64,000 nucleotides of DNA from an uncultured Verrucomicrobiota bacterium. GTDB lineage: Bacteria > Verrucomicrobiota > Kiritimatiellia > PWTM01. Positions 13,799 to 60,257 of the stretch are shown here, piece after piece; within the stretch, counting starts at the first letter, position 1; each line of letters opens with the position of its first letter. The stretch is taken from positions 18,417 to 82,416 of the forward strand of contig CAZSUU010000003.1 in the NCBI GenBank assembly GCA_964610105.1. Direction: 5' to 3'. The notes under the pieces are model-generated. The model searched no databases. It worked only from the letters and a program-made list of their open reading frames with translations, and was not told the origin of the DNA. Made by a program: the position numbers and the translations under genes.

Positions 13799-13841
13799 CG
13801 CCGACGTCAGAAGGCCCGCGAAAAACACCAGCACGTGCGGG

Positions 13842-15110
13842 TCATCTCTCGGCGGAACCGTCCAACGCCTTCCGGGTCGTGCGCGTGTCCCTGAGTCCAT
13901 GTGCCGCCGCGCGGCGGTGACCGGGCGTCGCTGAACACGGAGTTGACTGCGCGACGCACGCCGCACGGCGGCGGGGCGGCTCGGGACACTGGGGGTTGGA
14001 GTATGAGGCTTGGGACTTGGTTCTGAGCGCCTCGATGATCCGGAGATCCGCCCGGGAGAAAGGATAGCGATCGAACTCGGCGGGACGGACCCATGCGTAC
14101 CCCGCGCAATGGCGGCAGCGGGGCCTGCCCCTGCGGATGCGCGCGAAGTGGGCGTGCAGCTCGATGGTGAAATGGCTGTAGGCGTGGTGGACCACGGTGA
14201 GCGGGAGACCGACCTCCACCTCCAGCGCCATCTCCTCCCGCATCTCGCGGCGGATGCACTGCTCCATCGTCTCGCCGGCCTCGCGCTTTCCTCCGGGGAA
14301 CTCCCACAGACCGCCCAGCATGTCGTCTTCCCGCCGGCGGGCGATGAGGATCTCGCCGCGGCGATTGAGCGTCACGGCCGCCCCCACGACCAGGTGCGGC
14401 ACCCGCCGCCGCCGCCGGGCGGCGGGCCAGCGCTCCGGATGGCCGGAGACGCCTCCCCGGCAGACCTCCCGCAGGGGACAGGCGTCGCAGCGGGGCCGGC
14501 GCGGGAGGCAGACCGTCGCGCCGAGTTCCATCATCGCCTCGTTGAAGGCCCCCGCGCGTCCGGGCGGCAACAGCGCCGCCGCCAGCGCGCGGCCTTCCTC
14601 CGGGCTCATGCGCGACCGGGTCCGCAGGCGGCACAGCACACGAAGCACGTTCCCGTCCACGGCCGCCACATCGCGCCCGAAGGCCAGGCTGGCCACCGCC
14701 GCCGCCGCGTACGGTCCCAGACCCGGCAGTCCGAGAAGGCCCGCGAGGGTATCGGGGAGCCGGCCGCCGGACTCCCGACAGACAGTGACGGCCAGCCGGT
14801 GGAGATGGCGGGCGCGGGCGTAGTAGCCGAGTCCTTCCCACGCCTTCAGCACGTCGTCGAGAGACGCGCGCGAAAGGGCGCGCATCGAAGGAAATCGCCT
14901 GAGAAAGCGGCGGTAGAACGGCATCGCCTGCTCCACGCGCGTCTGCTGCAGCATGAGCTCGGAGACCAGCACGCGATAGGGCGTCCGGTTCCTCCGCCAG
15001 GGGAGATCGCGGCCGTTCGCGTCGAACCACGGCAGAAGCCGGTCCCGGACGGCCCGGGCGAGGCCGGCCCGATCGCGAACTCCGGTGGATGGCTTTCGCT
15101 TCATGGCCAA
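13842..15110 (-). CDS. mutY: A/G-specific adenine DNA glycosylase with C-terminal NUDIX-like domain
   Basis: HhH-GPD fold, 4Fe-4S cluster cysteines CLPRRPRCDACPLREVC, NUDIX-like C-domain. The last ~60 codons look like low-complexity read-through. Confidence 0.85.
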   Translation of the reverse strand: MAMKRKPSTGVRDRAGLARAVRDRLLPWFDANGRDLPWRRNRTPYRVLVSELMLQQTRVEQAMPFYRRFLRRFPSMRALSRASLDDVLKAWEGLGYYARARHLHRLAVTVCRESGGRLPDTLAGLLGLPGLGPYAAAAVASLAFGRDVAAVDGNVLRVLCRLRTRSRMSPEEGRALAAALLPPGRAGAFNEAMMELGATVCLPRRPRCDACPLREVCRGGVSGHPERWPAARRRRRVPHLVVGAAVTLNRRGEILIARRREDDMLGGLWEFPGGKREAGETMEQCIRREMREEMALEVEVGLPLTVVHHAYSHFTIELHAHFARIRRGRPRCRHCAGYAWVRPAEFDRYPFSRADLRIIEALRTKSQASYSNPQCPEPPRRRAACVAQSTPCSATPGHRRAAAHGLRDTRTTRKALDGSAER

Positions 15111-16897: not shown

Positions 16898-17308
16898 TTA
16901 ATTCGTGCTGATCACCGACAGGTTCTTCAGCTCCGCCTTGGCCGACAGGTCGAGGACCTTGATCAGTCGCTCGTGGTGCGAGCCGCCGGAGCACATGATC
17001 AGGATGGTCTGCGTCTTGTCGAGCGCCGCCAGCTCGCCCAGCAGCTTGTCGAGCCCGGCCACGTCGACCGGCCGGTCGTTGATCGTATAGCCGTCGGGAA
17101 AGATGTTGATGCGGATGAGCTTGGGCGGGGTCTGCAGCTTCTCCTGCTTCGCCTCGGGCGAGGGGCGCGAGACGTCCAGGTGGGCGAAAACGTCCATGGG
17201 CTTGATGGTGACAATGAAGTACACCAGCAGCTGGAACACGACGTCGATCATCGGCGTCATGGGCAGTTCCGCGGGCGGGGTCTTCGATTTGCGTCGTTTG
17301 CGCGCCAT
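16898..17308 (-). CDS. exbD: Biopolymer transport protein ExbD/TolR (paralog 2)
   Basis: 136 aa, N-terminal TM MTPMIDVVFQLLVYFIV, ExbD family. Confidence 0.85.
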   Translation of the reverse strand: MARKRRKSKTPPAELPMTPMIDVVFQLLVYFIVTIKPMDVFAHLDVSRPSPEAKQEKLQTPPKLIRINIFPDGYTINDRPVDVAGLDKLLGELAALDKTQTILIMCSGGSHHERLIKVLDLSAKAELKNLSVISTN

Positions 17309-17320
17309 GGTATGTCCTGC

Positions 17321-17746
17321 CTATTTCGGTGGAGCCTTGGCGGCTTCCTTGATGGCGGAAAACTTGATCTTCCACAGCCCCGCCTGCGAGCAGGCGTCGA
17401 TCACGCGCCGGACGTCGTCGTGCCGCACGAGGGCGTCCGCGCGGATGACCACGGGCAGGCTCTGGGTGTGCCGCGCCACCTGTCCCCGCATGAACGACCG
17501 CAGCGCCGGCAGCGTCATCCGGGAACGGGCGATGTACACCCGTCCCTGGTCATCCACATCGATCGTGATGGTGCGCGGGTCCTTCTTCTCCACCGCCCTC
17601 CCGTGGGGGGCCAGCGCCATGCGCAGGTCCATCTCCAGTTGCTGGTTCTGCATGGCGATCGTCACGATGAAGAAGATGATGAGCTGGAACACGACGTCGA
17701 TCATCGGCGTCATGTTCATCCCCGTTTCGTCCGACCGTTTTCGCAT
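17321..17746 (-). CDS. exbD: Biopolymer transport protein ExbD/TolR (paralog 1)
   Basis: 141 aa, MTPMIDVVFQLIIFFIV TM segment. Confidence 0.85.
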   Translation of the reverse strand: MRKRSDETGMNMTPMIDVVFQLIIFFIVTIAMQNQQLEMDLRMALAPHGRAVEKKDPRTITIDVDDQGRVYIARSRMTLPALRSFMRGQVARHTQSLPVVIRADALVRHDDVRRVIDACSQAGLWKIKFSAIKEAAKAPPK

Positions 17747-17787
17747 GACTCACTCTCCGAAGCCCGGCGGCCCGGGATGGCCGGGGA

Positions 17788-23251: not shown

Positions 23252-23330
23252 GGCGACCCGCGGTCCAATTCGAATGGAATTCGATCCGCAGTCCACACCG
23301 AGGACGCGGGCAGGATTGCCCGCGGTACGG
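23252..23330 (+). repeat. 3' hairpin element copy 1 (GCGGGC-AGGATT-GCCCGC with conserved 5' flank)
   Basis: Shares ggcgacccg...gtccaca.cga.gacgcgggcaggatKgcccgcgg with 47259-47325 and the hairpin core with 41876-41893; lies in a convergent intergenic region. Confidence 0.5.
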
Positions 23331-23454
23331 GTGCTGGGCGTACCGCGCGCAATCCGTCCGCATGAGGCGCGGTGTTGGGGGGGAAGAGAGAAGGCCCCAC
23401 CGCGCTCGATGGCGGTGGGGCCCTCAAGAGAAGCCGGTCGATCAGCCGCGGAAC

Positions 23455-35800: not shown

Positions 35801-35955
35801 AACAGCGGCCCCGTCAGCCGCCTCGCCTCCATCGGCAGCTCGCGAAACCGGCGCTCGACCTCCTTCATATCCGGCTCGCCCCTCTCCGCCCCCGCGGGCG
35901 GGCCCGACATCGCCGCCAGCACCGTCAACCCTGCAGCCAGGGTGAAACGCTTCAT
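32815..35955 (-). CDS. Large secreted glycoside-hydrolase-like protein (1046 aa; GH106/GH2-like architecture, tentative)
   Basis: Start MKRFTLAAGLTVLAAMSG (ATG 35955, preceded by AGGGAG). The longer ORF to 36093 is read-through of the conserved upstream element. Confidence 0.7.
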   Translation of the reverse strand: MKRFTLAAGLTVLAAMSGPPAGAERGEPDMKEVERRFRELPMEARRLTGPLFWLHGDESRERLETYLDRVAESGNGAFTAESRPHNDWLGEGWYRDLDICLKKARELDLQMWIFDEKWWPSQMVGGKVPPEYGSKTMAAAATPVEGPKRLTEPGYDGREFIGAVAGRETEAGVDGASLVDLAPHIRDGTLTWDAPAGRWKVMKFTWQLTGPKGMQQKMIAVDGASPDCVEWFLKTVYQPHYDRFKDDFGRTIRGYFFDEPETLGDWGTDVMTLLAERKVDWKKALVAWKFRLAGEEQIAARYQYADAFAEAWGRTMYGGMSKWCREHRVVSIGHFMEHSNDLFSRQLCAGNMFQLQKYCGMGGIDLVCRQFYPGERKPGLWQMARLGSSITHVYNKPDDIAMCEIFGAYGQDLTYPQIKWLTDQMQVRGVNFMIPHSFNPRAPHDTDCPPYFYNGGFEPRYPLHRVYCDYTSRLSVLLSGGRHVAPVAFLFPGQSMHAGRCVRNDALTDTLDDALYDCDWVPYDAFEELAAIEGGALKLHKESYRILIVPPAEVIPYPALAKAKEFFEKGGIVVGYDVLPGKSATLGKTAADLAALCDAVWGNPSPGTAACKTSAAGGRSYFLPARPTVEQIQGAFAKDAGVRPALEVIEGETGGWLHVLHRVKSGRDVFLVCNQNHMGDARRFRFRIAAAGEPEAWDAMRNEIAAVPYKRIAANAVELDLTLEPSESVVLLFQEERRVLPARLPPAGPPAREPVAVQRVATPPELIIPSAPPAETPNSAEDAALSGCRWIWFPRGDAAQGVPPGMRYFRGGCTVPAGRAIRQARFIGTCDNAFTLFVNGREAGRSSDDLEGWRSPTKLDLTKLIGEGANVFALAALNMADTPNPAGLIGRIEIAFESGAPLACALDATWKAAEREEPGWNRPDFDDKAWPASKEVGAYGCAPWGRFAAAGAGRGRLTASPVASDPFVGRCELPADMNPARTRVFVEMDGIAPEEAARVSINGRYAGGFIGRPFRLDVTKHLTPGMNTVVIEPFAPRAVRLVFRPR

Positions 35956-35969
35956 GCTCTTCTCCCTAA

Positions 35970-36138
35970 GGCGGCGAGCCGCAACCCAACGGTCCTGGCC
36001 GCTCAATGCCCTCACTCCAGTCCGTCCGTTCCTTCGTGCAACCGCGCCGCCTTCCGAGATTGTTCCGCCACCCATTCCACGGAGGAACCTCACGGAGGAA
36101 GCATCACACGCAACTGCGCCTCATGTTTTGGCGGAACA
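35970..36138 (-). promoter_or_regulatory. Conserved ~170-nt upstream element, copy A (5' leader/promoter module of the GH gene)
   Basis: About 80% identical and colinear with 47994-48162 (core ~88%); ends 14 nt before the GH start codon. Contains tandem cacgga(g/a)(g/a)a motifs and ttgttccgcc...ggcggaacaa. Confidence 0.55.
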
Positions 36139-36639
36139 ATCCAGGGCGGCGCGCGCCGACCGAGCGGTTCCGGTTCACCAGGCCCGTTCTGCACAGGGCT
36201 TTCATGCCGTAACCATGCCAGAACCGGCCCGATCAGGCAAAGACTGTGATAGGCGAGCGCACGCGCGCCGCTCGGGAGTGCCGTGGGTGAGGCAGTCCGT
36301 GTCTGCGCCATCGGCCGGTCAGATGCCCGAGCTCCTCCGAAACGTCCTGACATTGGAAGCGACGCGTTCCGATCGGTCCGCACCTTGGAAACCTCTGGAG
36401 TGCACACCGCTGAAAGACCGTGGCGGAATGCCCCGCCGAATCGACGCTCGGACCTGGCGCACCAGACGTTCCTCAGCGACGGCCGATCTCCCGACGCTTC
36501 GTCCTTGCCTGCGCCGTTGAACCGTCGCAACATCCGATCGGCCGCACCCCGGCAGCGCCTCCTCGCCGATCCGGCGACCGTCGGATGGTTCTGCGACCGA
36601 CGGGGTCGGGCGGCAGCCTGACGCAAAGGAGTACGTGCA

Positions 36640-37037
36640 TGAGCCTCTGGAGCCGCATCCGGGAGTGGATCGCCGGCCGCAAGGACAGTGCCGGCCGGAT
36701 CGTGAAGGTGAAGAGCTACGACAAGGGGGAGTGCGAGCGCGCCCTGGAGGAGGCCGAGAAGCGTCTCGGGCTGAAGTACGCCGGCAAGGGCATCACGGTC
36801 ATCGCCCAGAAAGGCGAGAGCATGGGCGGCGGATTCTGGGGCCTCCTGAAAACCAATACCGCCGCCGGAGTCACGGGGAACGCGAAGAGGCAGACCCTCT
36901 ACCTCTACACCGATCCCCAGGGCGCCGAACGCTGGAACGAGCTGCTCCACGAGATGGCGCACGCCGTGCTCTTCAGCCACGGGGAACAGGGTCACCCCCC
37001 CCAATACCGCAAGCTGTTCGAGCACTGGTACGACTGA
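36640..37037 (+). CDS. Small HExxH(x5)H protein, putative mini zinc metallopeptidase (132 aa)
   Basis: Strong SD AAGGAG 8 nt upstream of ATG; motif LLHEMAHAVLFSH; native GC3-rich codon usage. Confidence 0.55.
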
Positions 37038-41813: not shown

Positions 41814-41875
41814 ACGCGCCGGATCCGATGAGGACAGATCCATCCGGTCCCTCCCTCCGGTCGCCAACGGGAGGC

Positions 41876-41893
41876 GCGGGCAGGATTGCCCGC
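41876..41893 (+). repeat. 3' hairpin element copy 2 (GCGGGC-AGGATT-GCCCGC)
   Basis: Identical core to 23306-23323; 63 nt downstream of the 40494-41813 gene, convergent with pgi. Confidence 0.4.
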
Positions 41894-44595: not shown

Positions 44596-44809
44596 AACGA
44601 AGTTCCTCCTCACCCGCGGCCCGCTGCAACCGGACTGCACCGAACGCTCCACGCTCCCACGGGGGGCCCTTCCTCTGCCCGTGCGACGGCGCCATCTTCC
44701 CGCGCCGTTCCGCCGCCCTCTTCCGCGGCGCGTCCGCACGGGACACCTGCCGCGTCTCCGGCCCCCGTCGTGCGGCCGGACACCCGGCCACCGGCTGTCC
44801 TCCGCGCGT

Positions 44810-45458: not shown

Positions 45459-45704
45459 ATGAAAACGGACGAGGTACGTGCGCGCATCGAAGACGAGGTA
45501 GCTGAATGGCTGCGCCAGGAAGCGGCAAAGCGCCGATGGTCCACCAGCATGATGGTGCGCCACATCATCTACGCGGCATACGATGCCGACAGCAAACGGG
45601 ACACAGAACAGTCGACGGCAGAGCCGGCAACCAAGCGTGCGGCACAAAGACGCGCAACTGCGATTCCGCCTACGGCAGTGCCTACTTCTTCCGTAAGTGC
45701 CTGA
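45459..45704 (+). CDS. Ribbon-helix-helix (CopG/Arc/MetJ-like) DNA-binding protein, RHH1
   Basis: VRARIEDEVAEWLRQEAAKRRWSTSMMVRHII fits the RHH beta-strand/helix pattern; SD GAAGGAG upstream. The C-terminal 17 codons run into the 77-bp repeat with non-native codons. Confidence 0.5.
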   Translation: MKTDEVRARIEDEVAEWLRQEAAKRRWSTSMMVRHIIYAAYDADSKRDTEQSTAEPATKRAAQRRATAIPPTAVPTSSVSA

Positions 45705-45729
45705 TGCCCTCAGCGCAATGAGAAGTGTC
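45653..45729 (+). repeat. 77-bp imperfect direct repeat, copy 1 (contains a duplicated bioD start, atgagaagtgtc)
   Basis: About 88% identical to 46400-46476; low GC (~50%) relative to the genome; internal agtgcct direct repeats. Confidence 0.6.
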
Positions 45730-46200: not shown

Positions 46201-46443
46201 ATGGCAACACGCACGTTCAGCGGCGGAAGATTCCTAACCACCGCCATCGTTGCGCCGGTCGCGGCCGTCGTGGTGGCCTGCCCGTTCTCGACCACCGACG
46301 TTGACTACGAGACGGACTATGGCCCCATCGGAAAGCCGTCGGAGTACACTGCCCGCAGACTCCGAGGAGAGGGCACCCGCACGGTGCTACGCAATGACAC
46401 GCAACTCCGATTGTGCCTACGACAATGCCTACTTTTCTCGTAA
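46201..46443 (+). CDS. Questionable 80-aa ORF, possibly a decayed duplicate; 3' end runs into repeat copy 2
   Basis: Reasonable codon usage for the first ~60 codons, rare codons inside the repeat; follows an anomalous AT-rich patch (46128-46165). Confidence 0.2.
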   Translation: MATRTFSGGRFLTTAIVAPVAAVVVACPFSTTDVDYETDYGPIGKPSEYTARRLRGEGTRTVLRNDTQLRLCLRQCLLFS

Positions 46444-46476
46444 GTGCCTGATGCCCTAAGCGCAATGAGAAGTGTC
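46400..46476 (+). repeat. 77-bp imperfect direct repeat, copy 2 (overlaps the bioD start codon)
   Basis: cgcaactccgattgtgcctacgacaatgcctacttttctcgtaagtgcctgatgccctaagcgcaatgagaagtgtc; the bioD ATG at 46465 lies inside it. Confidence 0.6.
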
Positions 46477-47258: not shown

Positions 47259-47325
47259 GGCGACCCGATTTCGACTGCGATCCTCAGTCCACAGCGAAGA
47301 CGCGGGCAGGATGGCCCGCGGCAGG
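47259..47325 (+). repeat. 3' hairpin element copy 3 (GCGGGC-AGGATG-GCCCGC with conserved 5' flank)
   Basis: ggcgacccg...cagtccaca.cgaagacgcgggcaggatggcccgcgg is colinear with copy 1; 78 nt downstream of the bioD stop, convergent with the ankyrin gene. Confidence 0.5.
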
Positions 47326-47405
47326 GAGTCCAGGAAAGCGGTGCCGCGCGCCATCCTGCGCGCGATCGGCAGGGCGAGCCGTCCCTGAAGAGCCGCCCCA
47401 GCGAT

Positions 47406-47978
47406 TCAGCGGTTGGTTCCCGACGGGGTGACCGCCCGACGGGCGAGGGCATCCCGCAGTTGCTTCTCGATGTCGGGACGGTTCATCCCCCGCACGAAAT
47501 CGAGCGGCGTATAGCCGGCCCTGTCGCGCGCGGTCGGATTCGCGCCCTGCCGAAGGAGGTAGTCGACCACCGTTCCGTAGCCGCGCCGCACGGCGTCGTG
47601 CAGAAGGGTGTTGCCTTCGTCGTCGACGATGTGATCGGGCTTCCACAGGCCCACCGACACCTGTTGCCGCACCTCCGCCAGGCGCTCCTCTTCCCGGCGC
47701 CTCGCCTCCTGCGCCGCGGCGAGGGCCGCGATGTTCTGCTGCACGACCGTCTCTTTCGCCGCCGCCGCCTCCTTGCCCATCGAGCTGGAGGGCGGGGCCA
47801 GTTTCCGGCGGAACCGATACGGGCTCGGTGTCGCCATCTTGCCCTTGGGCGCCGAAGTCGGTTTGAGCGCCGGCTGCGCGGCCGCCTTCTTGGCGTTCTC
47901 CTTGTCGGCGGCCTTCTTATCGGCGGCCGAGACGGCGCACGCCGCCGCCAGAAGCAGGATGACCCATCGCACACTCAT
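47406..47978 (-). CDS. Secreted ankyrin-repeat protein
   Basis: Signal peptide MSVRWVILLLAAACAVSA (ATG 47978); C-terminal ankyrin repeats GNTLLHDAVRRGYGTVVDYLLRQGANPTARDRAGYTPLDF. Confidence 0.7.
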   Translation of the reverse strand: MSVRWVILLLAAACAVSAADKKAADKENAKKAAAQPALKPTSAPKGKMATPSPYRFRRKLAPPSSSMGKEAAAAKETVVQQNIAALAAAQEARRREEERLAEVRQQVSVGLWKPDHIVDDEGNTLLHDAVRRGYGTVVDYLLRQGANPTARDRAGYTPLDFVRGMNRPDIEKQLRDALARRAVTPSGTNR

Positions 47979-47993
47979 GATCCACCGTCCCAC

Positions 47994-48162
47994 GGCGGCG
48001 AGCCGCAACCCCGCGGTCCTCGTCGCTCAGTGCGCCGACCGCGTTCGTTCCGTTCCTCCGTGCAACCGCGCCGCCTTCTGAGACTGTCCCGCCACCCTTT
48101 CCACGGAGAAACCTCACGGAAAACACGATGCGCATCTGCGTGCCATGTCTTCGCGGAACAAG
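47994..48162 (-). promoter_or_regulatory. Conserved ~170-nt upstream element, copy B (5' of the ankyrin gene)
   Basis: Colinear with 35970-36138. Its reading frame differs from the downstream gene, unlike copy A, which argues for a noncoding element. Confidence 0.55.
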
Positions 48163-48257
48163 GTAATGTACTCGTGGCGGGCGGTCTTGGCAACCGCCGC
48201 GCCCCCGCGAAGCGCAGGACGTCCGGCGATCCCGTCGTGAACGCGGAACCGCCCGCC

Positions 48258-55643: not shown

Positions 55644-55672
55644 TTGACACTGCCCTGCCGTCTCCCTATTAT
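55644..55672 (+). promoter_or_regulatory. Near-consensus sigma70 promoter (TTGACA-17-TATTAT) upstream of the pilus/T2SS cluster
   Basis: caTTGACActgccctgccgtctcccTATTATcc, about 45 nt upstream of the TTG start of pilB. Confidence 0.5.
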
Positions 55673-55716
55673 CCAGCCTCAGGCAGTCGTGCGCACCCGA
55701 ACCGGGGGGCAGCTTC

Positions 55717-57414
55717 TTGACGGCAAACGACGATTACATTGTTGAGATCCTGGAGAGCGTCGGTCTGATCACCCGCCGGCAGGGGGAAGAGGCGCTCCAT
55801 TCCGCCCAGCAGGAAGACAAAGACGTGGTGGACATCCTCGTCCGCAACACGGGTCACACCAAGCTGGAGATCCTGAAGGCATTGGCCACGCAATTCGGGA
55901 TGGACACCGTCGACATCAAGTCCATGGCCATCGGGAAGGAGGTCACCGATCTCGTGCCGGCCAAGGTCGCGCGGCGGTACCGCATCGTCCCGTTCGAGCG
56001 CACGGAGACGGCGCTGCGGGTGGCGCTGAGCGACCCGTTCGACGTCGAGACGCTGGACAGCCTCCGCTACATCCTCAAGATGAACGTCGAAGGCGCGGTC
56101 GCCCTGCGCGAGGACATCGACGTCACGCTCGACCAGTACTATCCCCAGGCGAGCGAGGAAATGGCGACGATGCTGCACGACCTCAGCGAGCAGTCCGGCG
56201 CGCCGGGGTCCTCGCTGACGATCGAGGAGACGGTGACCGACGCGGACGAGCCGATCATCAAGCTCGTGAACCTGATCATCCTCGAGGCCTTCCGCCGGCG
56301 CTCCTCGGACATTCACCTGGAGCCGCTGGAGAAGAAATTCCGCGTCCGCTATCGCATTGACGGCGTGCTGCACGAGGTCGAGAGCCCGCCCCGCCGCCTG
56401 CAGTCGGCGATCATCAGCCGCGTGAAGATCATGGCGAACATGAGCATCGCGGAGAAGCGGGTGCCGCAGGACGGCCGCATCCAGATCAACGTGATGAACC
56501 GCGACCTGGACCTGCGCGTGTCGGTGCTGCCCGCCAACCACGGCGAGACGATCGTCATGCGTATTCTCGACAAGAGCAGCCTCATGCTGGGCCTGTCGCA
56601 GCTCGGTTTCTTCTCCGACGACCAGCAGACCTTCGAGCGGCTGATCGCGCTCTCCGACGGCATCCTCCTCGTGACCGGCCCCACCGGCTCCGGCAAGACG
56701 ACGACGCTGTACGCGTGCCTCAACCAGATCAACAAGCCCGACCGCAAGATCATCACGGTCGAGGACCCGGTCGAGTACGTGATGCCGGGCATCAACCAGG
56801 TCCAGGTCCACAGCGACATCGGCATGACCTTCGCCGCGGCGCTGCGATCGATCCTGCGCCAGGCGCCCAACATCATCATGATCGGCGAAATCCGCGACCT
56901 GGAGACGGCGGAGATCGCCGTCAACGCCTCCCTCACCGGCCACCTCGTCTTCAGCACCCTGCACACGAACGACGCGCCCAGCGCCGTCACCCGCCTGATC
57001 GACATCGGGGTCAAGCCGTTCCTCGTGGCCTCCTCGACCCGCGCGATCATGGCCCAGCGCCTGGTGCGCCGCATCTGCCCGAAGTGCAAGGAGCCCTACA
57101 AGCCGAACGAGAGCGAGCTGCACCTGCTCGGGCCGGCGACGGCGCACGTGGCCGCCGCGGAGCTGTTCAAGGGCAAGGGGTGTTCGGACTGCGCCAACAC
57201 CGGATACCGCGGCCGGTGCGGCATCTACGAGATCTTCGTGCTCGACGACATCGTGCGGCACATGATCAACGACCAGGTCGCCGCCGGCGAGCTCCGCGCC
57301 CAGGCGCGGCGGCTCGGCATGCGCACGTTGCGCGAGGACGGCCTGCGCAAGGTCGTGGCGGGCACGACCACGCTGGAAGAGGTCTTCCGCGTGACCATGG
57401 GGGACAAAGACTGA
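55717..57414 (+). CDS. pilB: Type IV pilus assembly / type II secretion ATPase (GspE/PilB family), paralog 1, TTG start
   Basis: Walker [10 protein letters not shown], Asp box, His box, tetracysteine CPKCK...CSDC, N-terminal GSPII_E_N-like domain. No in-frame ATG upstream of the first conserved block. Confidence 0.9.
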
Positions 57415-58511: not shown

Positions 58512-58520
58512 GACCAGGTC

Positions 58521-60257
58521 ATGGCCGAGAATCCCAGTGAAATGCGGGCATCCGAAGCGAAGGACTATCTGCTGCAGCAGGTCCTGGCGGAGGGCATCAT
58601 CACGGCGGAAGTTGCCGGCGAGGTCATGGAGGAGCACAAGCGCACGGGCAACCCGGTGCGCGAGCTCCTGGTCGACATGGAGATCATGACCGAGGACGAG
58701 CTGCTGGACTTCATCGCCCGGCAGATGGGCACCTACGTGATCGACCTGGTCTCGCAGCCGCCCGACCGCGAGCTCGCCAAGCTGATCCCGGCCAGCGCGG
58801 TCCGCATGTACAACGTCGTCCCCGTCGAGGGCGAGGGCAACGCCATCACCCTGGCGACCGCCGACCTGCTCAGCCCGGAGGTCATCGACGAGCTGGTGTT
58901 CGTGCTCACGCGCGACATCAGCTACGTCATCGCGAAGTCGAGCGACATCCGGCACGTGATCAAGGACCTGTACGGCGACGTCAAGGACTCGGTCGGCGAC
59001 ATGCTCTCCCAGCTCGAGGCCGAGCTGCAGGAGGCGGGCGACATCCTGGACTACAACCGCGCCAAGGCGGGCGACGTGATCGACCTGGAGCAGATCGCCA
59101 ACCAGGCCCCCGTGGTCCGGTTCGTCAACCTGGTGCTGTACCAGGCCGTGCAGGACCGCGCCTCGGACATCCATTTCGAGCCGTTCGAGAACGAGTTCAA
59201 GATCCGGTACCGGGTGGACGGCGCCCTCTACGAGATGGCCCCCCCGCCGAAGCAGCTCGCCCTGCCGGTCATCTCCCGCGTGAAGGTCATTTCCGGCCTG
59301 AACATCGCGGAACGCCGCCTCCCGCAGGATGGCCGCATCAAGCTCACCATCGCGGGCCGGACGATCGACTTCCGCGTTTCCACCCTGCCCACCCAGTTCG
59401 GCGAGAGCGTGGTGCTGCGTATTCTCGACCAGAGCACGGTCCAGCTCGACCTGGAGAACATCGGCCTGCCGGACGACATCTACGAGACGCTGACGTTCGA
59501 CATCAGCAAACCCAACGGCATCATCGTGGTGACGGGCCCCACGGGGTCCGGGAAGACGACGACCCTCTATGCCGCGCTGAAACGGTTGAACACCATCCAG
59601 GACAAGCTGCTGACGGCGGAGGATCCCGTCGAGTACGACATCGAAGGGATCATGCAGATCCCGGTCCACGAGGGCATCGGCGTCACGTTCGCCCGCATCC
59701 TCCGGTCCTTCCTGCGCCAGGATCCCGACATCATCCTCGTCGGCGAGATCCGCGACAAGGAGACGGCCGAGATCGCCATCCAGGCCTCGCTCACCGGCCA
59801 CCTGGTGTTCAGCACCCTGCACACCAACGACGCGGCCGGCGCCATCACCCGCCTCATCGACATGGGCGTGGAGCCGTTCCTCATCGCGTCCACCATGGAG
59901 GCCATCCTCGGCCAGCGCCTCGTGCGGACCATCTGCCCCCACTGCAGGCAGTCCTACCAGCCCGAGAAGGACGTGCTGGACATGCTGAACCTCAAGCCCG
60001 ACCAGGTCGGCGATCGTCCCTTCCACTTCGGCGCCGGCTGCAAGCAGTGCAACGACACCGGCTACCGCGGCCGGCGGGGCATCTTCGAGTACCTGCGCAT
60101 GACCGAGCCCGTGCAGGCGCTCATCAACCAGCGCAAACCCACCCTGGTGATCCGCGACAAGGCGGTGGAGATGGGCATGCGCACCCTGCGCGAGGACGGC
60201 ATCCGCTGTATTCTGGACGGCTACACGACCGTCGAGGAAATTTTGAAGTATACTTAG
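58521..60257 (+). CDS. GspE/PilB-family secretion ATPase, paralog 2
   Basis: 578 aa, same motif set as paralog 1 ([15 protein letters not shown]...CKQCNDTGY); about 45% identity by eye. Confidence 0.9.
   Translation: MAENPSEMRASEAKDYLLQQVLAEGIITAEVAGEVMEEHKRTGNPVRELLVDMEIMTEDELLDFIARQMGTYVIDLVSQPPDRELAKLIPASAVRMYNVVPVEGEGNAITLATADLLSPEVIDELVFVLTRDISYVIAKSSDIRHVIKDLYGDVKDSVGDMLSQLEAELQEAGDILDYNRAKAGDVIDLEQIANQAPVVRFVNLVLYQAVQDRASDIHFEPFENEFKIRYRVDGALYEMAPPPKQLALPVISRVKVISGLNIAERRLPQDGRIKLTIAGRTIDFRVSTLPTQFGESVVLRILDQSTVQLDLENIGLPDDIYETLTFDISKPNGIIVVTGPTGSGKTTTLYAALKRLNTIQDKLLTAEDPVEYDIEGIMQIPVHEGIGVTFARILRSFLRQDPDIILVGEIRDKETAEIAIQASLTGHLVFSTLHTNDAAGAITRLIDMGVEPFLIASTMEAILGQRLVRTICPHCRQSYQPEKDVLDMLNLKPDQVGDRPFHFGAGCKQCNDTGYRGRRGIFEYLRMTEPVQALINQRKPTLVIRDKAVEMGMRTLREDGIRCILDGYTTVEEILKYT

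Follow-up and report, generated by a model that had tools for sequence, protein, structure and literature searches.

In the window, by which we mean the whole 64,000-nt stretch of DNA analysed here (host G+C 68%), two closely similar segments, A and B, stand directly upstream of two unrelated genes, one for a glycoside hydrolase and one for an ankyrin-repeat protein. Do they mark a regulatory device shared by genes of exported proteins, or do they resemble each other for a different reason? The initial annotation of this DNA had offered three readings: a shared promoter with a regulator-binding module, a structured 5' leader for exported proteins, and a small non-autonomous repeat. Our analysis favours the last, and we conclude that A and B are quite probably members of a new family of dispersed intergenic mosaic repeats resembling ERIC, BIME and MITE elements.

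The similarity of the two segments is real and far above chance. In a blastn comparison A (35970-36139) and B (47994-48161, minus strand) are 80.6% identical over 170 nt (E=5e-38), and MAFFT aligns the same colinear block with a single 2-nt indel, in agreement with the colinear pair of about 80% identity first reported. The two best-conserved blocks of this alignment, the 20-mer GAAGGCGGCGCGGTTGCACG and the 22-mer TCCGTGAGGTTYCTCCGTGGAA, occur in the 64-kb window at the A and B sites only, with 0.03 and 0.00 matches expected from shuffles, respectively. Borders set by nhmmer (Table 1) are slightly wider than those originally drawn. Copy A ends 14 nt ahead of the ATG at 35955 of a 1046-aa protein with a GH106 domain (PF17132, E=9.6e-32) and copy B ends 16 nt ahead of the ATG at 47978 of a 190-aa ankyrin-repeat protein, which confirms the position ascribed to both, directly 5' of minus-strand genes. 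The signal peptides ascribed to the two proteins are matched by hydrophobic, signal-peptide-like N-termini, judged by eye from the sequence.

The element had also been called noncoding, and we agree. The ORF that copy A was said to inflate to 36093 is indeed present, and the frame of the element relative to the downstream gene differs between A and B. A conserved ATG in the left hairpin of the unit opens a frame that indels break in 5 of the 11 full copies, and variability by codon position is nearly flat (0.106/0.131/0.150, 11 copies). Because the frame is shifted in these five copies and codon-position variability is flat, we take the repeat to be noncoding. A small peptide starting at the conserved ATG was considered and rejected on the broken frame and the lack of a third-position excess.

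How widely does the unit occur? Six-frame translations of A and B were joined into one profile, and protein libraries were searched with it for spurious ORFs lying over copies. A word-indexed search returned one such ORF and an exhaustive HMMER search of 1.84 billion representatives returned 14; the encoding contigs were examined for 10 of the 14, and the copies on them were then delimited by nhmmer. The initial annotation had proposed a count of copies in relatives, and these searches give nine more distinct loci in related metagenome assemblies, in varied contexts. The family census stands at 11 full-length distinct copies, one 5'-truncated copy and two to three decayed ones, and pairwise alignments of the loci end at the unit borders in nearly all pairs. 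At least copies A, B, H and K come from the Logan sample series of the window; since H and K share this series, one genome probably carries at least four full copies. In at least 15 assemblies, short-read (Logan) contigs with the ankyrin gene or the acyltransferase gene upstream of it end inside copy B, which is expected for a repeat and hinted indirectly at more copies. Scans of GTDB species genomes with the exact 20-mer core and of JGI metagenomes with a 22-nt degenerate pattern gave chance matches only, with unrelated flanks, so that the lineage is evidently absent from the genomes and metagenomes scanned or too diverged in them. No match to the repeat was obtained in viral contigs, plasmids, phages and E. 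coli genomes. The host itself is an uncultured bacterium of the PVC group, probably of the Kiritimatiellia: the IleRS of the window shares 72% identity with proteins that NCBI assigns to Kiritimatiellae MAGs and 68% with Verrucomicrobia/Spartobacteria entries. As a side observation, at least 14 database ‘proteins’ (P0001-P0014) are spurious ORFs over repeat copies, on either strand; some of them, P0011 for example, extend a real gene at its N-terminus.

Table 1. Copies of the repeat, parts of copy A and associated features. Positions refer to the window unless a contig (L number) is given.
Feature	Position	Strand	Evidence or property	Context
Copy A	35965-36142	-	full length, 176-178 nt; nhmmer with 11-copy profile, E=4.5e-52	divergent region, directly 5' of GH106 gene
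Copy B	47989-48164	-	full length, 174-176 nt; nhmmer, E=2.3e-50	tandem: acyltransferase gene, element, ankyrin gene; co-oriented
Copy C	L015 3174-3000	-	nhmmer	between birA and coaX, antisense to both
Copy D	L034 86-263	+	nhmmer	followed by 3' fragment of tRNA-Leu-like sequence (by eye), then intact tRNA-Leu(gag)
Copy E	L036 1134-958	-	nhmmer; also occurs as L035	357 nt 5' of FG-GAP repeat gene; tandem, co-oriented
Copy F	L031 698-523	-	nhmmer	
Copy G	L032 144-262	+	nhmmer; 5'-truncated	directly 5' of gene for small protein with hydrophobic N-terminus
Copy H	L038 2971-3147	+	nhmmer	starts at stop codon of TRAM/U5-methyltransferase (rRNA/tRNA methyltransferase) gene; convergent genes
Copy I	L042 2971-3147	+	nhmmer	type VI secretion operon, between tssL (DotU) and tssM (IcmF); starts at tssL stop codon; co-oriented
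Copy J	L037 1738-1912	+	nhmmer	between OMP beta-barrel gene and next same-strand gene; co-oriented
Copy K	L043 3209-3033	-	nhmmer	between convergent ppk1 and PPK2 genes
Copy M	L047 1408-1240	-	nhmmer	divergent region, 150 nt 5' of ABM monooxygenase gene
h2	L038 1554-1473	-	decayed copy	
Decayed third window copy	44610-44767	-	nhmmer, E=1.8e-4; colinear over profile positions 40-170	between PEMT-like and SAM_HAT genes, co-oriented with both
Possible 5'-third fragment	13811-13862	-	weak match; nhmmer, E=1.1e-3, profile positions 3-57	
Sigma-70-like promoter, TTGCCA-17-TACATT	48165-48193	-	1 found, 0.0 expected in shuffles	directly 5' of copy B
Copy A, P1 5' arm, GATTGTTCCGCC	36130-36141	-	fold and repeat search; extends outward to 36151 with weaker complementarity	
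Copy A, P1 3' arm, GGCGGAACAATC	36058-36069	-	fold and repeat search	
Copy A, P3 5' arm, AAGGCGGCG-C-GGTTGCA	36037-36053	-	most conserved block of the family, block conservation 0.96	
Copy A, P3 3' arm, TGCGGCTCGCCGCCTT	35968-35983	-	fold and repeat search	
Copy A, tandem direct repeat, sense TTCCTCCGTG twice, spacing 13	36075-36100	-	repeat search (D1, I2)	
REP-like palindrome sites	23305-23359; 47299-47356; 41871-41893; L031 464-519, 1120-1146; L047 1545-1577			

The contexts of the copies bear directly on the opening question. Signal-peptide-like N-termini are encoded downstream in only 3 of about 11 placements, and the genes that follow other copies are cytoplasmic or unrelated (ABM monooxygenase, SAM_HAT, tssM; an ABC-ATPase-like gene also occurs). 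No sense-strand gene lies downstream in three placements, H and K standing between convergent genes and C being antisense to both neighbours. In H and I the stop codon of the preceding gene comes from the repeat, and A and G are in frame with the next gene. The unit is thus found in varied positions and orientations relative to genes, a pattern that the initial annotation had itself named as evidence against a leader or promoter; since H, K and C could not serve a downstream gene, both of these readings go unsupported.

From the alignment of 12 sequences and a repeat search, the consensus emerges as a bipartite imperfect palindrome with stems of 12 and 16 bp and a 10-nt long-range complementarity. 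The unit is about 175 nt long, or about 195 nt counting a weakly conserved left extension, and 10 of the 11 full copies measure 174-176 nt. The left module is closed by the 12-bp stem P1 (GATTGTTCCGCC/GGCGGAACAATC), inside which lie the hairpin P2 (ACATGA.ACGCAGATGCGT.TGATGT) and tandem YTCCGTG repeats; the right module is closed by the 16-bp stem P3 (AAGGCGGCG.GGTTGCA/TGCGGCTCGCCGCCTT), which has three consensus G-U pairs, and the modules are joined by the complementarity of TTCCTCCGTG with CACGGAGGAA. Copy A holds an inverted repeat I1 with 23-nt arms (36048-36070 and 36129-36151, 83% complementary) and another, I3, of 35968-35976 with 36045-36053 (100% complementary). The inverted pair noted earlier in this copy was recovered by the repeat search as TTGTTCCGCC/GGCGGAACAA, and the internal block singled out with it was found as CGTGCAACCGCGCCGCC. 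The tandem direct repeats of copy A exist as claimed (CACGGAGGAA at 36078-36087 and 36091-36100), at a spacing of 13 nt and not of the 15 nt given, and the second of them is complementary to CACGAAGGAAC at 36028-36041. The motif CGCCGCCTTAG, CGCCGCC(T/C)T(A/G)G, is found, as such or as its complement, at both edges of the unit (weakly at the left one) and in its middle; its orientation alternates from site to site, which gives the unit a mosaic, BIME-like look.

The borders have the consensus (C)TAGATTGTTCC at the 5' end and GCCGCCTTAGG at the 3' end, and both carry T(A/G)G. Terminal inverted repeats were not found, the first and last 20 nt being complementary only over CCTA in a comparison by eye; each end has its inverted-repeat partner in the middle of the unit. 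By manual count, the flanking trinucleotides match exactly in 3 of 10 copies, where about 3 are expected from the border consensus, and at this chance level they give no evidence for a target-site duplication. No transposase or integrase was found adjoining any copy and no empty site was seen, and we therefore only infer that the unit has been mobile. Descent from an IS110 bridge RNA, an IS200/IS605 omega-RNA, a retron, an integron attC site or a group II intron remnant was set aside, as no recombinase, RT or TnpB gene adjoins the 12 copies and no Rfam model matches.

Pairwise identity among the copies is 67-86% (median 77%), and despite this divergence of about 23% the length of 174-176 nt has been kept. 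Conservation along the unit is uneven, with a block variance of 50.5 vs. 25.1 in permutations (p=0.007). A fixed length and uneven conservation in old copies argue for constraint beyond plain neutral decay, and the sequences indicate that some constraint on the unit exists. Both features would fit a family of functional structured RNAs, acting in cis as UTR modules on mRNA stability or translation or transcribed independently as small RNAs, and kept by selection at each site, in which two stem-loop domains are joined by UUCCUCCGUG/CACGGAGGAA. The 10-nt long-range complementarity is conserved accordingly, with 85.8% of cells paired in 12 copies, but it shows no compensatory change. Covariation, which the initial annotation had proposed to examine, showed no excess over shuffles either: with explicit structures for 12 copies, a sample of limited power, 86.8% of cells are paired vs. 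86.5% in shuffles (155 of 500 shuffles reach the observed value), 3 pairs are changed on both sides vs. 2.8 in shuffles, and a variant with the long-range pairing as a pseudoknot does no better. The RNAalifold covariation term is unfavourable (+1.49). With paired cells at shuffle level, the helices belong to the consensus and individual mutations are uncompensated.

Other observations on the same question are likewise two-sided. The G-U pairs of the consensus helices exist on the sense strand only, and there non-consensus G-U pairs outnumber A-C mismatches by about 31:13 in a manual tally (58 G-U cells in P1/P2/P2b/P3, about 27 of them consensus, and 13 A-C cells); however, the sense strand is G-rich (about 38% G vs. 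25% C), which biases the G-U count. Minimum free energies are modestly better than those of dinucleotide shuffles, without a sense-strand preference (mean z -1.6 sense, -1.5 antisense). Copies between tandem genes are co-oriented with them in 4 of 5 cases, which is not significant. A -10-like hexamer, TAGATT/TACATT, lies at the 5' edge and is part of a full promoter at B, but none was detected for A, the spacing is wrong in C, D and E, and no terminator was found at A and B. Rfam gave no match at gathering score across the window and noise only at E<10 around both copies. The decayed and truncated copies (G, h2 and the window relic at 44610-44767) also speak against selection at every site. 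Taken together, we regard a functional RNA family as unlikely. In a more specific form it would be a domesticated RNA module under selection at each site, its two stem-loops locked by a conserved pairing of anti-Shine-Dalgarno-like UUCCUCCGUG with Shine-Dalgarno-like CACGGAGGAA, with effects on mRNA stability or ribosome access when working in cis, or with copies serving in trans as a family of small RNAs; this we consider rather doubtful. To our knowledge, no regulatory RNA of such a kind has been described in Kiritimatiellota.

A shared promoter combined with a transcription-factor module, in which the tandem TCCTCCGTG repeats would serve as operator and co-regulate genes of exported proteins, fares worse. 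The direct repeats do stand 13 nt apart in most copies, but this distance is unlike one helical turn and the direct repeat is altered in C, D, I and K. Copy B has a sigma-70-like promoter, and its -10 hexamer aligns with the conserved 5' border of the family; yet in C, D and E the spacer is only 13-16 nt long or the -35 is poor (read by eye), and in H and I coding sequence occupies the place where a promoter would lie. A promoter as part of the unit was rejected, correct spacing being present only at B. The unit may instead contribute half a promoter, completed by accident of the flanking sequence; in Correia elements and other MITEs promoter hexamers can be completed by flanking DNA (PMC10969869). 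Although A, B and the truncated G directly precede genes with hydrophobic, signal-like N-termini, the distribution of the remaining copies largely refutes this reading, and we give it very little credence.

A protein-sponge small RNA of the CsrB/RsmZ type, with multiple GGA motifs, would account for the purine-rich conserved block ACGGAGGAACGGA and for the 5-9 GGA per copy where about 4.6 are expected. This enrichment is weak (z about 1-2; 1.2-2 times), however, and TCC is equally enriched, as the palindrome predicts; defined hairpin-loop GGA sites, a promoter or a terminator were not found, nor was csrA in the roughly 260 kb examined, and many copies lie inside operons, so that we think a sponge scarcely credible. 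A local segmental duplication or chance similarity of two loci only, for which nothing speaks beyond the original A/B pair, is refuted by nine further loci on other contigs and from other samples with the same 175-nt unit and borders, and has practically no chance of being right.

Hence, among the three original suggestions, the shared promoter with a regulator-binding module and the structured leader go unsupported, in view of the copies between convergent genes and in antisense position, the cytoplasmic or unrelated genes downstream of others, the want of a consistent promoter and the missing covariation, and the small non-autonomous repeat is supported by a unit that is multi-copy, dispersed and variously placed and oriented relative to genes. 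How does such a dispersed intergenic repeat compare with known systems? One close likeness is that to ERIC/IRU elements, 127-bp imperfect palindromes of Enterobacteriaceae and Vibrionaceae. Like our repeat, they are short noncoding units of fixed length in transcribed intergenic space, often lie against ORFs, take either position relative to genes and are conserved across related genomes without an identified transposase; they can alter the stability of host mRNAs (PMC10969869). In contrast to ERIC, the repeat is longer, has two palindromic modules and not one, belongs to a host of the PVC group and is not matched by blastn (word 11, E<0.01) anywhere in 5,426 complete E. coli genomes. With the BIMEs or REP clusters of E. 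coli and the RIMEs of rhizobia it shares a mosaic build, in which a short GC-rich motif (CGCCGCCTTAG) alternates between conserved segments, and a strictly extragenic location; a separate REP-like palindrome family of about 60 nt also occurs in its genome. BIMEs are, however, arrays of 20-40-nt REPs, whereas here arms of 12-16 bp are set in a fixed 175-nt unit. The REP/BIME tag is GTAG/CGTC (PMC3733652); this tag was not seen in the repeat, whose border motif is CTAG/TTAG, and no gene for a RAYT, the transposase associated with REPs, was seen in the DNA examined.

Correia elements (CREE/NEMIS) of Neisseria and bacterial MITEs are similar in size (100-200 bp), in high copy number and in their frequent position just 5' of genes, and when transcribed their copies form hairpins (PMC10969869). 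Correia elements differ in having 26-bp terminal inverted repeats and a TA duplication, whereas our repeat has its inverted repeats within the halves, and a search of its flanks gave no target-site duplication. Measured against canonical MITEs, the unit lacks terminal inverted repeats but is below 500 bp, noncoding, multi-copy (at least 12 loci) and dispersed. The RPE of Rickettsia and the pneumococcal BOX, RUP and SPRITE elements are small dispersed repeats that can extend into genes and there provide a stop codon or lengthen the reading frame (PMC10969869, PMC3049150), as H and I do with a stop codon and A and G with their frame; they have no sequence relationship to the repeat and another architecture. 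The repeat is not related in sequence to any known family; as a kind of element it is ordinary, and its novelty lies in its sequence and its host.

If A and B belong to such a family, their likeness would reflect common descent from a repeat and not shared regulation of the GH106 and ankyrin genes. The repeat would have spread by a copy-and-insert or recombination process into short intergenic gaps, at sites that often seem to butt against stop or start codons, and with co-transcribed copies two stable stem-loops would become part of the mRNA. At A and B the repeat would form nearly the whole 5' UTR and would provide the purine-rich stretch just before the ribosome-binding site, and at B the conserved TACATT and the flanking TTGCCA could make up a complete sigma-70-type promoter. 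As far as can be judged from the DNA, the repeat therewith probably influences the expression of both genes, an effect that would be incidental to its site of insertion. The likeness of the DNA in front of the two secreted-protein genes is accordingly not a signal of a secretion regulon, and a tempting false lead is removed. What is gained is an intergenic repeat family not described before, from an uncultured PVC lineage that has been little studied. The family also has practical consequences: the repeat breaks short-read assemblies, inflates ORF calls and creates spurious database proteins. It keeps its length, is unevenly conserved and has no recognisable transposon ends, which raises the puzzle known from ERIC of what maintains such units, and the family would be a second, phylogenetically remote system for this question.

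Copy D has an unusual neighbourhood. It is followed at L034 265-313 by what looks, on reading the sequence, like the 3' half of a type-II tRNA, a segment that begins in the anticodon loop (CTTAGGA), includes the T arm and closes with the acceptor end; the intact tRNA-Leu(gag) comes next, at L034 314-402. The 3' consensus TTAGGA of copy D coincides with the start of the tRNA fragment, and the arrangement may be the scar of an integration event, or the repeat may have interrupted a tRNA gene. On the other side, the 27 nt directly 5' of copy D (L034 89-115, upstream part; locus 60-86) resemble the 3' end of the repeat (TTGGGTTGCGG...CCGCCTTA, p=0.001 vs. background), which suggests, from the sequence, two units head to tail or one nested in the other. 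A general rule that copies have their own 3' end directly repeated in the flank was rejected: the match reaches significance for D alone (p=0.001) and is borderline for J and A.

Besides this family, the same genomes contain at least two further families of short intergenic repeats. One, unrelated to the repeat described here, is a GC-rich REP-like palindrome of about 55-60 nt (GACGCGGGCAGGATTGCCCGCGGTACGGGTGCTGGGCGTACCGCGCGCAATCC; Table 1), which occurs just downstream of the ankyrin gene; in L031 it follows copy F at a distance of 3 nt. On that contig, upstream of copy F (L031 765-917), there are also at least three tandem-like repeats of GCGCGCA(C/T)GGGCACCAC. The window also holds a 93-nt direct repeat of lower G+C (45637-45729 and 46384-46476, plus strand, 85% identical, no Rfam match). 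Its first copy lies in an apparently noncoding stretch and its second runs into the start (ATGAGAAGTGTC) of a plus-strand AAA_26/DUF1611-like gene; it may be a duplicated 5' region.

Some further features of the window were noted. Between copy A and a small divergent plus-strand gene (36636-37037; weak SprT-like match, E=0.003) about 500 nt (36143-36635) are without a convincing ORF, which is unusually long for a bacterium. Two paralogous T2SSE/MshEN secretion ATPase genes (55648-57414 and 58512-60257, plus strand) lie about 1 kb apart and are 68% identical at the DNA level. Finally, a 58-nt match of 84% identity (17204-17261 and 17657-17714, minus strand) falls in the adjacent small minus-strand ORFs 16898-17320 and 17321-17749, which are probably tandem paralogous genes.
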